Origin: Chlamydiota bacterium
Lineage (GTDB): Bacteria; Chlamydiota; Chlamydiia; Chlamydiales; JACKPQ01
Reading direction: 5' to 3'
Assembly: GCA_021772435.1 (NCBI GenBank)
Contig: JAJFLZ010000037.1
Location: 129,260 to 193,259, forward strand
DNA length: 64,000 bases
Shown here piece by piece: positions 15,031 to 45,866 of the stretch. The position numbers were made by a program, and so were the translations under genes. Positions within the stretch are counted from its first letter, which is position 1. Every line of letters starts with the position of its first letter. The notes beneath the pieces are model-generated. The model was not told the DNA's origin. It did not search any database and worked only from the letters and a program-made list of their open reading frames with translations.

Positions 15031-15076
15031 ACTGATGTTACGCGCAAATGAATCCAGATATGCGCGTAAGGTCAGT
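15031..15076. mobile_element. Collapsed 46-bp copy of the MITE-like element found at 44645-44806
   Basis: Arms ACTGATGTTACGCGCA / TGCGCGTAAGGTCAGT match at 14/16 as inverted repeats, separated by 14 nt. The reverse complement of this copy matches the first 34 nt of the 44.6-kb copy at 30/34. CATA lies immediately on both sides. Confidence 0.55.
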
Positions 15077-34801: not shown

Positions 34802-34831
34802 ACGGGGCTTATCTAAGCCCCGTTTTTTTTT
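34802..34831 (+). terminator. Rho-independent terminator ending the T2SS-side transcription unit
   Basis: ACGGGGCTTA-TC-TAAGCCCCGT is a 10-bp perfect stem, followed directly by T8-9. Confidence 0.85.
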
Positions 34832-34832
34832 A

Positions 34833-35084
34833 CGAGATAATCTTTTAACGCATTTTAAATCCTTGCTCGGGGGTCTGCCTAGAGGCATGACCACCCTCGC
34901 TACGGACGAGCTGCTAGCTCGCCCGCGGGTTTAAACTGCATCTAAAATCTAGATCTCGTAAGCGAGCGAGATAATCTTTTAGCGCATTTTAAATCCTTGC
35001 TCGGGGGTCTGCCCAAAGGCATGACCACCTTCGCTACGGACGAGCTGCTGGCTCGCCCTCGGGTTTAAACTGCATCTAAAATCT
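34833..35084. repeat. Two tandem 118-bp units (34833-34950 and 34967-35084, 112/118 identical) with conserved internal hairpins
   Basis: Direct reading shows a period of 134 bp and a 16-bp linker. Each unit has an outer stem GCATTTTAAATCC/GGGTTTAAACTGC and two inner hairpins, GGTCTGCC-TAGA-GGCATGACC and CGAGC-TGCTA-GCTCG. Confidence 0.9.
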
Positions 35085-35206
35085 TAATTTCGTTTCGTCT
35101 TCTTCCAATAATTTTGTATAAGGGATGTACTCCATCTAGCTAGGCTGGTTGTTTGTTTTTCTACGATGATTTAGAATGAAAAATTATTAATCGTAGGAGA
35201 TGTGAC

Positions 35207-41827: not shown

Positions 41828-44614
41828 CTAAATTCCCATTTCGTCTAAAGAGGTTTTAATCTCTTTAGCTTGCGTTTTTACAAAGGACGTAGCCATTTTG
41901 TCTGATCTAACTTCTTCTAATAGACGTCCTGCTTTAAAAACGTGCTCTTGGGCAGCTTCGATGTTTTTGTTTGCTAAAGCAAGCTTGCCTTCAAGCTGTA
42001 GGATTTCAGCGTCTACTAAGCGCATGTAAAGCTGGAAGATATGGTTTTGTTCGGGGTTTTGTTGTAGCGCTGTGTAGTATTCTTGTGAAATAGGATCGTC
42101 ACTTGGACTAAAGTCTTCTTTGATCCGCTTTAAGAAGAATAAGTGACGCTCATCGCGCTCACCTTTAGCTGTAAGTTTTGTTCGAATGTGGGCGTAGTCA
42201 AAAGCAGCTTCTAGGTGCAAAGGCTCCGTTGCTACGTGTTTTTTGATTTGCAGCTCTTTGAGGTTGTTTAAGACACTTACCATTTCAGGATTGTCTTCGG
42301 TTTTACTTTGTTCGTGCATTCCAGCAAAACGCAAGCGTGCTTCTTGTAAGAGCGCTTGATAAGATAGAGGTGAGGGGCTGTATTGCGATGTCTCTGTGAT
42401 GAAGCTGTAGGTGTCGAGAGCAGAGGTGCGATCTCCAGTTTGTTCGTAGGTTTTAGCTAGTTCTAAAAGCGTGTGCCGTTGAAATTTCCATTCCCATTCG
42501 GGTTGAGCATTTTGGTAGGTGGCTAAGCTTTTTAGCAAAGTGATTTTGGGTCCATATTCTCCCCTTTCGTTTAAAAGCTCTGCTAGTTTGAGTGTTTCAG
42601 CTTCTAGAAAGAGAGAGTCTTCGTCGATAGCATTGACTTCCCAAGTGTTTTCATCTGCGAGCACGCCTTTAAACAGGTAGAAAGCTCGCTGGCTTGCTAG
42701 CTGCTCACCATCTTGCGATGTGTTGTTTTTTGCTTGTTCGTAAAAGTAGTTCGCAAGCCACAAACGGTTTTCAGCTTTAATGGTTTGCGTGTCTTTTGAG
42801 ATGGCAGCGTACAGATGTAAAGCCGCTTTACATAGGAAGGCATCGCCGCTTTGACTCAGTGTAGATAATGTGAGGTAAGCATTGTAGAGTTCAAGATGAA
42901 CACTTGCCGTATCGTAATAGTCTGCACCGAGCTCTAATGCTTGTTCGAAGTGTTTGCATACAGGCTGCAGGTCGTGATTGATCTCTTTTGAAGATAGACC
43001 CGCGATAAAGTGCGCTTCAGCAAGGGATGGGTCATCCTGGTAGTCGTTTAAGTAATGTTCCAGTTTGCGATAAGCCACATCGAACAAGTCAAGCTCATAT
43101 GCAATTTTAGCTTGCAATAAGCGGTATTCGCGCTTCTCATCGACGCTCAAGATTCCATCGTTATCTAAAACACGCGAGAGATCATCGTAAAACGAACCTT
43201 TTGAGTAATGGATTTCATCGTTTGTATTCGCTGCTTTAAAGAGATTTAATGATGAAGAGAAAAAGTAGCGCCACGCAATATTAGCACGATCAGATTGGCC
43301 GTAGTAATTTAAAAAACTGCTAAATGATTCGTATGCCTTGCCCCAATCTTGATGATCGTATGTGAGTGAAGCATATTCAAATAACAGACCTTCTTGATCG
43401 TCGTAATCTGGATAGCGAGTCAGTAGTAGTTCTAAATCATTTTGCACAGCCATACGGTCTCCGGCAGCTTTCGCTAGCATAGCGTGTGTAAAAATGGCTT
43501 TAGGCATTTCAGAATCGTCTGAAAATTGCTCACGGAACCTATCAAATGTCAGATTGAAAAGAGTTGGATCGCCTTGATGGTAAGAGGCTGTCATGAGCAT
43601 GAGTAGTGCATTTTTTAAGGAGGGTGTCGCTGCTTCTTCCACTGCTGTGTAGTATTTTAAGTGCTGGATAGCATTTCCGTAATCTTCAACACTGAAGAAA
43701 CTTTTTCCCACGATGAGATTGAAAAGAGGCTGTTTGTCTTCTGGAATGAAGCTGTCGACGTTTTCATATGCGTTAATCACTTCGTTGTAGTGGCCGAGTT
43801 GGTAGTAGATGAGCAGGCGGTTAAAAGTTGCTTCACTAGCTCTATTTCCGCTCATACCGATGATAGTAGAAAAAGTTGTGATAGCTTGGTCTGGCTTAAA
43901 TTGTGCTTGCAAATTGGCGGCGTGGAAGAGGAGCTCTTCGCGCTGGTCGGTGTATTTTTCGGCTAGCTCAAGGTAGATTTTTGCAGCTTCTGGATAATCA
44001 CCAAGTGTGTTGTGAATTTCAGCTAGGGCAAAGCTTGAGATGTCAAAATACGCTGTATTGCTAAGTGATTCATAAAGTGGTTTAGCTGCATTTGATAGGT
44101 GTTGTTTTTGCTCAGGATTAGCAGAAGTCAGTGATCTGCGGAAATAGGCTTCTGCCATGAGGAAACGAAATTCATCACTGCGCTCGTCGATCGATGGATT
44201 GCTGTGTAATAGGTAGGGCTCGCCCTCATGCGTAATGGCTTCATATTTGCCGAGCTCGTAGTAACACTGCAATTTGTTGATCAGGATTTTTTCTCGTACG
44301 TCGCGATTACCAATTTCGGAGTAGAGTGAGAGAGCGTAATCGTAGTTGTCTTTCTGCAAATACAAATCGCCTAAAATTCCCTTTAAATGGTCTTTGAGTT
44401 GGCTATCGGGGTATTTTTCCAAAAATGTCATGATTTGTGATTGAACGATTTGGTAATCGCCATCTTTCCAAAACTCTGCGATGCGTCTGACTAGAAATGC
44501 CTCTTCGTCGCTTTGAGGTTGCATCGATAGGATTTTCACTTGATCTCTTGCGCTCAGCGGTGCTAGGGATGTTATAAGCGTACATGTTGCATATACAAAC
44601 CAACGAATTTTCAT
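41828..44614 (-). CDS. Large secreted tetratricopeptide-repeat (TPR) protein
   Basis: 928 aa. Signal peptide MKIRWFVYATCTLITSLAPLSA. TPR-like helical pairs run throughout (..A.F..A..YY..G.Y..A..). Confidence 0.75.
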   Translation of the reverse strand: MKIRWFVYATCTLITSLAPLSARDQVKILSMQPQSDEEAFLVRRIAEFWKDGDYQIVQSQIMTFLEKYPDSQLKDHLKGILGDLYLQKDNYDYALSLYSEIGNRDVREKILINKLQCYYELGKYEAITHEGEPYLLHSNPSIDERSDEFRFLMAEAYFRRSLTSANPEQKQHLSNAAKPLYESLSNTAYFDISSFALAEIHNTLGDYPEAAKIYLELAEKYTDQREELLFHAANLQAQFKPDQAITTFSTIIGMSGNRASEATFNRLLIYYQLGHYNEVINAYENVDSFIPEDKQPLFNLIVGKSFFSVEDYGNAIQHLKYYTAVEEAATPSLKNALLMLMTASYHQGDPTLFNLTFDRFREQFSDDSEMPKAIFTHAMLAKAAGDRMAVQNDLELLLTRYPDYDDQEGLLFEYASLTYDHQDWGKAYESFSSFLNYYGQSDRANIAWRYFFSSSLNLFKAANTNDEIHYSKGSFYDDLSRVLDNDGILSVDEKREYRLLQAKIAYELDLFDVAYRKLEHYLNDYQDDPSLAEAHFIAGLSSKEINHDLQPVCKHFEQALELGADYYDTASVHLELYNAYLTLSTLSQSGDAFLCKAALHLYAAISKDTQTIKAENRLWLANYFYEQAKNNTSQDGEQLASQRAFYLFKGVLADENTWEVNAIDEDSLFLEAETLKLAELLNERGEYGPKITLLKSLATYQNAQPEWEWKFQRHTLLELAKTYEQTGDRTSALDTYSFITETSQYSPSPLSYQALLQEARLRFAGMHEQSKTEDNPEMVSVLNNLKELQIKKHVATEPLHLEAAFDYAHIRTKLTAKGERDERHLFFLKRIKEDFSPSDDPISQEYYTALQQNPEQNHIFQLYMRLVDAEILQLEGKLALANKNIEAAQEHVFKAGRLLEEVRSDKMATSFVKTQAKEIKTSLDEMGI
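42815..42833. repeat. Palindromic element copy (ATGTAAAGCCGCTTTACAT), inside the 928-aa TPR gene, read as LCKAALHLY
   Basis: The arms extend to ATGTAAAGC/GCTTTACAT. The reading frame differs from the other CDS-embedded copies. Confidence 0.85.
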
Positions 44615-44644
44615 GGACCCACCTGTGTGTTAAGTGTGTTTTTA

Positions 44645-44806
44645 ACTGACTTTACGCACATATCTGAATTTATTTGCGGAGCTAGCAGGCACCAATCTAC
44701 TGCATCATCCTCCTCGCCAAACTTCTTGGAGTTTGACTCGTCGGCTTCTTTGTATCTCGGCACCTTCACTGGCGCATCTAAATCCACCTCTGTGCGTAAG
44801 GTCAGT
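44645..44806. mobile_element. MITE-like non-autonomous element (162 bp) with 16-bp terminal inverted repeats
   Basis: Terminal inverted repeats ACTGACTTTACGCACA (44645-44660) and TGTGCGTAAGGTCAGT (44791-44806) match at 15/16. TTTTA lies directly on both sides (44640-44644 and 44807-44811). A second, collapsed copy is at 15031-15076. Confidence 0.65.
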
Positions 44807-44816
44807 TTTTAAGTCA

Positions 44817-45866
44817 CTATAACGACAGACTGGAAGAATTTGCAAGTAACTTCCGCAAAGAACTTTTATAAAATTTAAGCAAATCGTTTGCTTTGGGATA
44901 AGACATGCGTTTTAGATGCTGATAAATCTCCAACGCTTTCGCATTAAAACCTTCTTGAAAATAGAGCACGCCTAGGCGATAGCTACTATCTAAATCTTCG
45001 GGACATAGACGTAATATTTTTTCATACGCAGCGATTTCTTCTTGCGGCATTTTTAAGTGGTGATAGCAAGCCGCTAGTTGTGAATGCACCCATGCATCGT
45101 TAGGTGCGTAGGTGTCTAAAATGGTAAATTCTTCTACAGCACTTTTTGAGGCTTTGTCAAATTTGTCTTTTAGCTCCCCTGCAAAGGTGCTTTTTTCGCT
45201 GTAATGAAGCTCCCCTTTTCTGAGGCGTTGCGATGGTTCGAAATAGAGATGGGACAAAGAGACAAAAGCATTGGCTAAATGTGTGTGCAGTTCGATATCA
45301 GTGGGCTTATCCGGAACAAGTTGAATGTAATGATCAATAGCGCTGAGCAAGAGCACTTCTTTCATTCTCAATACATCGCGCCAGTGCAAAAAACAACTGA
45401 GCTTGGGAGTCAAAGGTGTTTTGAGTAGCGGATAAAAATGATGCTCTTGATGTTGCAGTAGAGCTACGAGGCGCTCCGCACAGCGAGCTTGCGAAAAATG
45501 GTGTTCAGAGACTCCGAGGTGCCTAGATGTTTTGCCGCAAGCGTCCAAATACGATTTTTTTAGTCGCCAAAATTGTTCGGTTTTTTTCGTTTGAAAAGTT
45601 GCAACCAGGACAATGTAGATAAATAGCGTTAAAATAAAGGCTGCCAAAGGAAATGCCAACATAAATGAATGGGACCAAAAAGAGAAAAACAGACTGAATA
45701 AAGCGCATTCGATTCCAATGACAAGAGCAAAAAAACAATGGAACATTACATGGGCTTTACATAAACGCATAAAGCGCCCTAACGCGCGCTCCATGTATTC
45801 ATCGACATGGCGCTGTCGCTCATTGACTTTGAGCTTATCTAAGGACGGGGTATCAGTGGTCTGCAT
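44817..45866 (-). CDS. Membrane protein with a bilobed hydrophobic domain and C-terminal TPR repeats (Inc-protein-like topology)
   Basis: 349 aa. Two adjacent long hydrophobic segments (VMFHCFFALVIGIECALFSLFFSFW and FMLAFPLAAFILTLFIYIVLVATF) lie ~40 residues from the N-terminus. The C-terminus has TPR-like repeats (AWVHSQLAACYHHLKMPQEEIAAYEKILRLCPED...). Confidence 0.6.
   Translation of the reverse strand: MQTTDTPSLDKLKVNERQRHVDEYMERALGRFMRLCKAHVMFHCFFALVIGIECALFSLFFSFWSHSFMLAFPLAAFILTLFIYIVLVATFQTKKTEQFWRLKKSYLDACGKTSRHLGVSEHHFSQARCAERLVALLQHQEHHFYPLLKTPLTPKLSCFLHWRDVLRMKEVLLLSAIDHYIQLVPDKPTDIELHTHLANAFVSLSHLYFEPSQRLRKGELHYSEKSTFAGELKDKFDKASKSAVEEFTILDTYAPNDAWVHSQLAACYHHLKMPQEEIAAYEKILRLCPEDLDSSYRLGVLYFQEGFNAKALEIYQHLKRMSYPKANDLLKFYKSSLRKLLANSSSLSL

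Follow-up and report, generated by a model that had tools for sequence, protein, structure and literature searches.

The palindromic elements of Rickettsia (RPEs) are found in intergenic DNA and now and then within conserved genes, whose reading frame they keep, according to the work of Ogata et al. (2000) as summarised in PMC10969869 and PMC2229807. The Correia or NEMIS elements of Neisseria form stem-loops in transcripts and have no known partner transposase (PMC2229807), and Correia elements have ends of about 24 bp and a TA duplication (PMC2229807, Table 1). Co-transcription with neighbouring genes has been described for ERIC and YPAL of the enterobacteria (PMC2229807), and mRNA stability depends, in the case of ERIC, on which way round the RNA hairpin lies, according to De Gregorio (2005), as related in PMC2229807. 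QMITE1 and QMITE2 of Coxiella burnetii have duplications of 2-3 or 7-11 nt, and their sRNA output has been shown (PMC5896051). The element analysed here occupies positions 44645-44806 of a 64-kb stretch of DNA (the window; C31:129260-193259, C numbers being contigs) from an uncultured Chlamydiales MAG, G000 (1.80 Mb, 48 contigs, 92.6% complete). We consider it very probable that this segment is one copy of a 162-bp family of non-autonomous cut-and-paste transposons, that is, a bacterial MITE moved by a transposase in trans; the family is called family 1 below. The element is an ordinary kind of selfish DNA, and family 1 has the features of a bacterial MITE: 162 bp, no transposase gene, inverted ends, target duplications, dispersed copies and empty sites.

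Both flanking genes are on the minus strand and encode TPR proteins, of 349 aa upstream (44817-45866) and of 928 aa downstream (41828-44614), and the spacer that holds the element runs for 202 bp from the stop of the former to the ATG of the latter; the earlier note on this DNA, which was made from the sequence alone, had correctly placed the element between a gene start and a gene stop. On the minus strand the locus reads TAG TGACT TAAAA (162 bp) TAAAA ACACACTTAACACACAGGTGGGTCC ATG, with the TAG 5 nt from the duplication and 10 nt from the element and the ATG 30 nt past the element. The terminal inverted repeats, ACTGACTTTACGCACA at 44645-44660 and TGTGCGTAAGGTCAGT at 44791-44806, are reverse complements at 15 of 16 positions, as that note had read them, and were found alike by direct reading, pattern scan and copy alignment; the boundaries of the element were set by aligning every copy in the genome. 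TTTTA, or TAAAA on the minus strand, is read at 44640-44644 and again at 44807-44811, at both ends of the element. Its interpretation as a target-site duplication, also put forward in the note, holds on comparison with other copies, which have 5-bp repeats of their own, and with a sister genome, where the TTTTA site is single.

BLAST recovers about 16-17 near-full-length copies of family 1 in G000 together with deleted forms and fragments, among them a 98-bp internal-deletion form at C24:29433-29530, so the further copies that the earlier note had proposed to look for exist (about 16 near-full-length matches besides fragments). Pairwise identity ranges from 70 to 98% with a median of 86%; with 97.5% identity to C38:3804-3965, the window copy ranks as one of the youngest. 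Boundaries are exact across the aligned copies (ACTGAC[C/G]TTACGC...GCGTAA[G/C]GTCAGT), divergence starts directly outside them, and the end sequence ACTGAYSTTACGC is conserved at both ends of all copies. Perfect direct repeats flank 11 of 17 copies; they are nearly always of 5 bp, occasionally of 4 or 6, and all AT-rich, and as expected of target duplications in the note's reading their sequences differ from site to site (TTTTA, CAATA twice, TACTA, TAATC, TATTT, TAAAA, TTAAA(A), TACA, TACCA and TATG). The most diverged copies have lost theirs. Three copies contain a nested member of a second MITE family, at the identical point in each. Most copies are intergenic, several of them 0-11 nt from a stop codon; because the element starts with A, insertion after a target that ends in TA re-creates a TAA at the left junction, and the ACTGA end also provides TGA in another frame. 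Orientation relative to neighbouring genes is mixed (++ 12, -- 11, +- 14, -+ 14), and the bias that was sought as a sign of mRNA-level function was not found.

For the empty-site test, the flanks of all 17 copies were joined, one copy of the duplication was dropped, and the product was searched against the sister genome (G001, JACKPP01, the same-genus MAG HK-STAS-VERR_A-4). The 349-aa TPR gene has an orthologue in G001 with 83% protein identity, and the 928-aa gene has one in JACKPP010000001.1 with 80%. Between the orthologues lies a spacer of 33 bp that consists only of TAGTGACTTTAAATTGAACTTACCATAGGTGGATCCATG and reads TAG TGACTTTAAATTGAACTTACCATAGGTGGATCC ATG; when the element and one TAAAA are removed from the spacer in the window, 35 bp are left, colinear with the sister genome, where the single-copy target site reads TAGTGACTTTAAATTGAAC. 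The joined flanks of the window copy are contiguous across the junction in the sister genome (77% over 598 bp), as are those of C18:112592, C3:2393, C31:17858 and C24:17107, and C38:3804 is a sixth site that is without the element there. The sole trace of family 1 in the sister genome is an eroded 76-bp remnant at a different place, which together with the empty sites indicates that the family expanded in this lineage after the split. The window copy was inserted after the species split from its sister species. An empty site in a related genome, another of the checks suggested earlier, is thus present at this very position, and copies, duplications and empty sites together support the note's view of the element as a non-autonomous MITE.

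Two of the about 17 copies, C18:112592-112751 and C3:2393-2554, lie in frame within genes, where each adds 55-56 residues, and both inserts are read on one shared strand and frame of the element. The host gene on C18 (C18:112215-112958) encodes an RluA-type pseudouridine synthase (PF00849), in which the insert SLTLRTEV...RNVS falls between the regions aligned to E. coli RluA 16-103 and 142-215, just before the TGRxHQIR strand, and the catalytic HRLD motif is intact despite it. The host gene on C3 (C3:2266-2979, insert KLTLRTEV...VRSV) encodes a conserved 237-aa protein and adjoins an ABC ATPase gene. Intact orthologues of both genes in G001 are without the insert. A canonical insertion adds 162 + 5 = 167 bp, which is no multiple of three and shifts the frame, whereas the in-gene copies amount to 165 bp, the element having lost 2 bp, and 168 bp, with one base gained in a T/A run at the junction; we infer that only length variants survive within genes. 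The two in-gene copies are older ones, and their behaviour, by analogy, resembles that of the Rickettsia elements.

Searches with the consensus (BLAST) find diverged copies of 67-80% identity in other family-level Chlamydiales lineages. The end pattern is matched 90 times in the genome G041 and 71 times in G055, as against 0 for the reversed control, and these genomes hold about 45 and about 35 copies of the element, respectively. We aligned 32 copies from six genomes (alignment A1) as the basis of a covariance model (R1). The ends are invariant in A1 and the central core is conserved in sequence (AAGATACAA..GACGA..CAACTC..GAGTTG..GAGGAG..GCAGTAGATTG); the sub-terminal arms vary by lineage with their complementarity kept, and of 48 consensus pairs given by RNAalifold, 28 have compensatory changes on both sides. 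The core of the window copy, delimited by invariant and near-invariant columns of A1, spans approximately 44692-44759 on the minus strand and reads ..GAGATACAAAG..GACGAG..AACTCC..AAGTT..GAGGAG..GCAGTAGATTGG; the core contains tandem G.A mismatches and a GACGA/GAGGAG internal loop. R1 scores the window copy at 129 bits on the minus and 43 bits on the plus strand, and it matches 71 of 400 Chlamydiales genomes in 56 of 216 genera, mostly at full length; it has no match to the other MITE families of G000 and the sister genome. The window itself holds four matches to the degenerate end pattern, against 0.06 expected from shuffles, and the third and fourth are the ends of a 46-bp internal-deletion derivative of the same family (15031-15076, plus strand; flanks (T)CATA; R1 35.5 bits, E = 8e-6), in which both ends are kept with 14 nt between them. 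The exact 24-mer of the element end has no match in 185,579 genomes, and a literature search returned no description of a chlamydial MITE and no paper with the family-1 end sequence.

The claim of the earlier note that the element encloses no credible ORF stands in part. No reading frame is conserved among the relatives in G041 and G055, but this copy, like the consensus element, is open in three of six frames. A coding explanation of the conserved core is rejected, the G041 copies having stops in most frames, and the conservation of the core is not coding-based. A core of this kind would not usually be seen in an element derived from an IS by simple deletion, and in this respect it counts against the MITE reading that we prefer.

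Elements with the same ends are found in other phyla. The pattern ACTGAYSTTACGC-N125-145-GCGTAASRTCAGT is present at more than 115 loci among the matches listed, with hosts that include Chloroflexota, Latescibacterota, Cyanobacteria, Thiotrichaceae (relatives of Beggiatoa and Thiomargarita), Methylococcaceae, Bacteroidota, Campylobacterota, Armatimonadota and others, and one 6.5-Mb Latescibacterota chromosome has 114 ends. Among the matches listed (loci L151-L265), no interior is related to another or to the chlamydial core, and what the elements have in common is limited to the 13-14-nt ends ACTGATGTTACGC(A) and the duplication of 5 bp at T|TANTA|A. All of those listed measure 151-171 bp, and for 96% of them the folding energy is -45 kcal/mol or lower. 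A perfect 5-bp duplication with the consensus TANTA accompanies 62 of the 112 listed elements, and 20 further ones have a 6-bp duplication by ambiguity; in the same listed matches T precedes the duplication in 60 of 62 cases and A follows it in 62 of 62, so that the target is the palindrome TTANTAA. A model with a 7-bp duplication, in which the element would be CTGA..TCAG, is less likely, given that A precedes CTGA at 390 of 396 ends among the matches listed and that the outer T or A sometimes differs; the sequences favour ends of the form ACTGA...TCAGT with a 5-bp duplication. Heptamer repeats of TAACTGA have been described as abundant in Beggiatoaceae, Cyanobacteria and Bacteroidetes (PMC4679880). 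Because TAACTGA equals the TA of the preferred target followed by the first five bases of the MITE end, these repeats and the MITE end may belong to one system. Tandem TAACTGA repeats are absent from G000; G055, which represents another chlamydial family, has three tandem heptamers at L094:976-996.

The earlier note had remarked that no transposase gene is in the window, and PF01609 and PF00665 have no match on the contig of the window as a whole. Its proposal to look for a full-length IS with matching ends met with no success in G000, its relatives or two complete chromosomes of other phyla. The genomes searched for an autonomous IS with family-1 ends, with none found, were G000, G001-G003, G041, G055, G259, G291, G384, G401 and G402, mostly draft MAGs, from which multi-copy IS are often missing. 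All occurrences of the family-1 end in G000 with at most three mismatches are either paired at about 160 bp or solo, with no parent IS. G055 has no match to PF01609 at all despite its about 35 copies of the element. Longer end-to-end spans of 272-519 bp in G041 and G055 have no ORF that reaches 110 aa; they are probably composite or nested elements. A PF01609 locus of G001 with two end-like 12-mers was rejected, the 12-mers being coding sequence of an IS5/IS1182-like transposase, as were two cross-phylum spans of about 2.3-2.5 kb between ends among the matches listed, which have host genes inside. The solo ends of the complete Latescibacteria chromosome have no IS and mostly a degenerate partner nearby, and an IS701/IS4-like IS of that chromosome has different ends.

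Several mobile elements of G000 itself were considered as the partner and rejected on their ends: two IS982-like elements, IS-A (ends ACGCGAATCATGGATCAACTC) and IS-B (ends ACCCAAGTTGTGACCTRG), the ISAs1-like IS-C, an IS4-family C-terminal remnant at C43:56462-56980 and a weak rve pseudogene. The remnant comprises 172 aa with an intact Y-2-R-3-E-6-K motif (NF033591, E = 1e-30), its upstream part having decayed. The CTGA tip of family 1 may recall the ends of the IS4 family. IS982-family elements have ends beginning with AC and duplications of 3-9 bp, traits which the AC ends and 5-bp duplication of family 1 fit, but there is no end-sequence match to the IS982-like IS of G000: the two multi-copy ones begin with AC and continue differently (ACGCGAATCATGG.. 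and ACCCAAGTTGTG..). One of the two makes 6-7-bp duplications ending in TA, and the AC termini and the AT-rich duplication ending in TA of family 1 may bear a slight resemblance to these elements. The IS982-like IS with a 305-aa transposase and ends ACGCGAATCATGGATCAACTC accounts for at least four assembly breaks (C38/C14, C31/C12, C18/C11 and C17/C33), at which contig ends are paired by matching 6-7-bp duplications (GCAATA, TAAGCTA, TAATTA and TTTCTTA); by these, the start of C31 joins the start of C12 across one copy of the IS.

Other repeats of the genome are of different kinds. The long repeats of G000 are not IS; they are coiled-coil, LRR or ankyrin tandem-repeat genes. Coding tandem repeats lie at C5:17690-19419, C45:1-1597, C25:3470-4226, C1:66465-67249 and C27:13872-14691, their products being coiled-coil proteins (periods of 36 and 35 aa), LRR and ankyrin-repeat proteins, and two of them run off contig ends. 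The second MITE family measures about 163 bp, has the ends ACCTGAACTCTGGGTTT and is represented in G000 by 43 full and 61 partial BLAST matches (for example C15:20323-20485, C42:6558-6678 and C10:54423-54589), none of them in the window. It lies at most contig ends and so breaks the assembly, it has 5-bp duplications at the same TANTA-type targets in 27 of 36 cases, and unlike family 1 it is also present in the sister genome, in at least 20 copies. Two tandem structured units at 34821-35093 of the window (C31:164080-164352), downstream of T2SS genes, were considered as a locus-specific duplicated sRNA and turned out to be copies of a dispersed family, which has 12-16 copies of about 160 bp each with ends CGAGATNAT...AGATCTCG.

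On the MITE reading, the transposase would be provided in trans; it would recognise the conserved ends ACTGAYSTTACGC and insert the element at AT-rich T|TANTA|A sites with a 5-bp staggered cut, and repair would yield the 5-bp duplication. The window copy came to lie in the former 33-bp spacer between the co-directional TPR genes, 5 nt past the stop and 4 nt past a promoter-like -10 box, and the insertion left the downstream ribosome-binding site and ATG intact. The promoter-like sequence, TTGCAA-N18-TATAGT (44816-44845, minus strand, from a consensus scan), lies in the last codons of the 349-aa gene and ends 4 nt before the duplication. It is weak on its own, no better than chance, because the scan finds one such site where 1.9 are expected; both hexamers are identical in the sister genome. 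Inserted 4 nt past the -10 hexamer and 30 nt short of the ATG, the element would open any transcript that starts there, and its position in the spacer would place it inside any read-through transcript of the TPR gene pair. Transcripts crossing the spacer would carry a hairpin of roughly 160 nt and about -68 kcal/mol with no U-tract. As minus-strand RNA the whole spacer has a predicted energy of -73.9 kcal/mol (z = -6.85 versus shuffles), and the element alone has -68.0 kcal/mol on the minus and -50.6 kcal/mol on the plus strand, so that the long hairpin which the earlier note had envisaged for the terminal repeats is borne out, as a predicted RNA fold, for the whole element. No U-tract lies 3' of the element stem and a terminator scan of the locus returned nothing; a role of the predicted hairpin in processing or stability is likelier than one in termination. 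DDE-type transposition in trans, and any effect on expression, are what we infer from these data.

The strand on which the element folds is not accounted for by a double-stranded DDE mechanism alone, and this counts against our preferred reading in its simplest form. When 63 chlamydial copies were oriented by their asymmetric core rather than by energy, the same strand, which is the minus strand of the window, was predicted to fold better in all 63 with RNA parameters, by about 21 kcal/mol (means of -77.4 versus -56.1 kcal/mol), and in 62 of 63 with DNA parameters. Consensus helices contain 179 G.T/T.G against 28 A.C/C.A pairs, in the same direction in six of six genomes, the cells of this count being non-independent through shared ancestry. 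The most abundant MITE family of G000 has the same one-strand bias (-73.9 versus -54.1 kcal/mol), whereas the same-end elements of other phyla, among the matches listed, fold equally well with little asymmetry (mean difference 4.8 kcal/mol). Asymmetry is unexpected because a palindrome that decays neutrally, or is under selection as double-stranded DNA, should change symmetrically, and since the copies are unoriented relative to neighbouring genes, selection via host mRNAs is insufficient as an explanation. Candidate causes are an element-borne RNA or a single-stranded intermediate. It is conceivable, though rather unlikely, that the Chlamydiales elements go beyond passive DDE-type MITEs, their one-strand hairpin and core being selected as single-stranded nucleic acid, and that the 13-nt end ACTGAYSTTACGC, common to more than ten phyla, marks a widespread unrecognised transposase-MITE system. 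The selected form may then be a structured RNA borne by the element, for instance a processing or stability module or a factor-binding RNA, or a single-stranded DNA intermediate of transposition.

The covariation in the hairpin, the strand asymmetry favouring G.U pairs and the conservation of the central core across chlamydial families could also be explained if the sequence were in the first place not a transposon but a duplicated gene for a structured RNA, or a cis-regulatory RNA, with the repeats as helices of a functional molecule. We think this improbable: the copies have target duplications and empty sites, their orientation versus flanking genes is random, some lie within coding regions, there are nested and deleted derivatives, and a search of Rfam at E <= 1 comes up empty. 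A mobile element may in addition have a role at the RNA level. Transposition as a folded single DNA strand, as in REP/REPIN with RAYT or in palindromes derived from IS200/IS605, would account for a strand-specific hairpin (all 63 copies under RNA parameters, 62 of them under DNA parameters) and for the excess of G.T over A.C pairs (179 versus 28). Single-strand transposition by HUH/Y1 enzymes works with asymmetric subterminal hairpins and produces no duplication, whereas family 1 has clean 5-bp target duplications and symmetric terminal inverted repeats, and the asymmetry is slight, 4.8 kcal/mol on average, in the listed same-end elements of other phyla; such a mode of movement is very unlikely. 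A chance inverted repeat or a terminator or attenuator hairpin specific to the TPR gene pair, for which the position between co-directional genes and the strong fold might speak, merits almost no credence, already refuted as it is by about 17 copies elsewhere and by an orthologous sister spacer without the sequence, to which the missing U-tract after the stem and the empty terminator scan may be added.

Read as a MITE, the element explains a 202-bp 'structured' spacer as a recent insertion. It adds to the evidence that this small chlamydial genome is riddled with MITEs, of at least five families, one of which has about 100 copies and lies at most contig ends, and such elements affect annotation (through spurious ORFs, altered gene ends and in-frame inserts), binning and assembly. 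With matches in 71 of 400 genomes the family is old and widespread in the order Chlamydiales. The tolerance of in-frame copies in conserved enzymes is a parallel to the Rickettsia elements in another obligate intracellular lineage, and the shared ends and target (T|TANTA|A, with a 5-bp duplication) give a concrete handle for finding the responsible transposase.

In all the features that define a bacterial MITE, apart from a known partner, family 1 qualifies as one. It works like Correia, ERIC and RPE elements but by sequence, ends or duplication length lies outside all three. The 5-bp AT-rich duplication is common to family 1 and the Tn3-derived inverted-repeat miniature elements (TIMEs), but the Tn3-type ends of TIMEs are about 38 bp long and begin with GGGG, in contrast to ends that start with ACTGA and are conserved over only 13-16 nt. 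REP/REPIN and palindromes derived from IS200/IS605 differ in that family 1 has duplications and symmetric ends. Its likeness to QMITE1 and QMITE2 lies in a MITE family of about 50 copies or fewer in an obligate intracellular host, in overlap with ORF ends and 3' regions and in conservation between strains (PMC5896051); duplication length, size and sequence are different. With ERIC and YPAL it shares the imperfect palindrome and the 127-168 bp size class, and the orientation effect of ERIC, so far as it is related in the source cited at the outset, parallels the strand-specific fold, whereas family 1 differs from these elements, which have TA at their termini, in sequence and hosts and has no orientation bias versus genes. 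Correia/NEMIS elements are likewise MITEs of about 100-160 bp with terminal inverted repeats, a long predicted stem-loop, positions near gene ends and promoters and a conserved internal segment (in Correia, that of the long form), but family 1 duplicates 5 bp rather than TA, and its ends are unrelated to the Correia ends of about 24 bp. As far as the summaries of the Rickettsia elements go, those too are hairpin repeats of about 100-160 bp in an obligate intracellular host, intergenic with some in-frame copies in which the element frame is open. Within the same limits, family 1 differs from them in belonging to another phylum, in its sequence, in its clear 5-bp duplications and 13-16-bp conserved ends, in being intragenic in just two of about 17 copies and in having relatives without a conserved open frame. 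Family 1 may thus be said to work like the Rickettsia elements, a likeness of behaviour by which no sequence membership in RPE-1 to RPE-10 is claimed.
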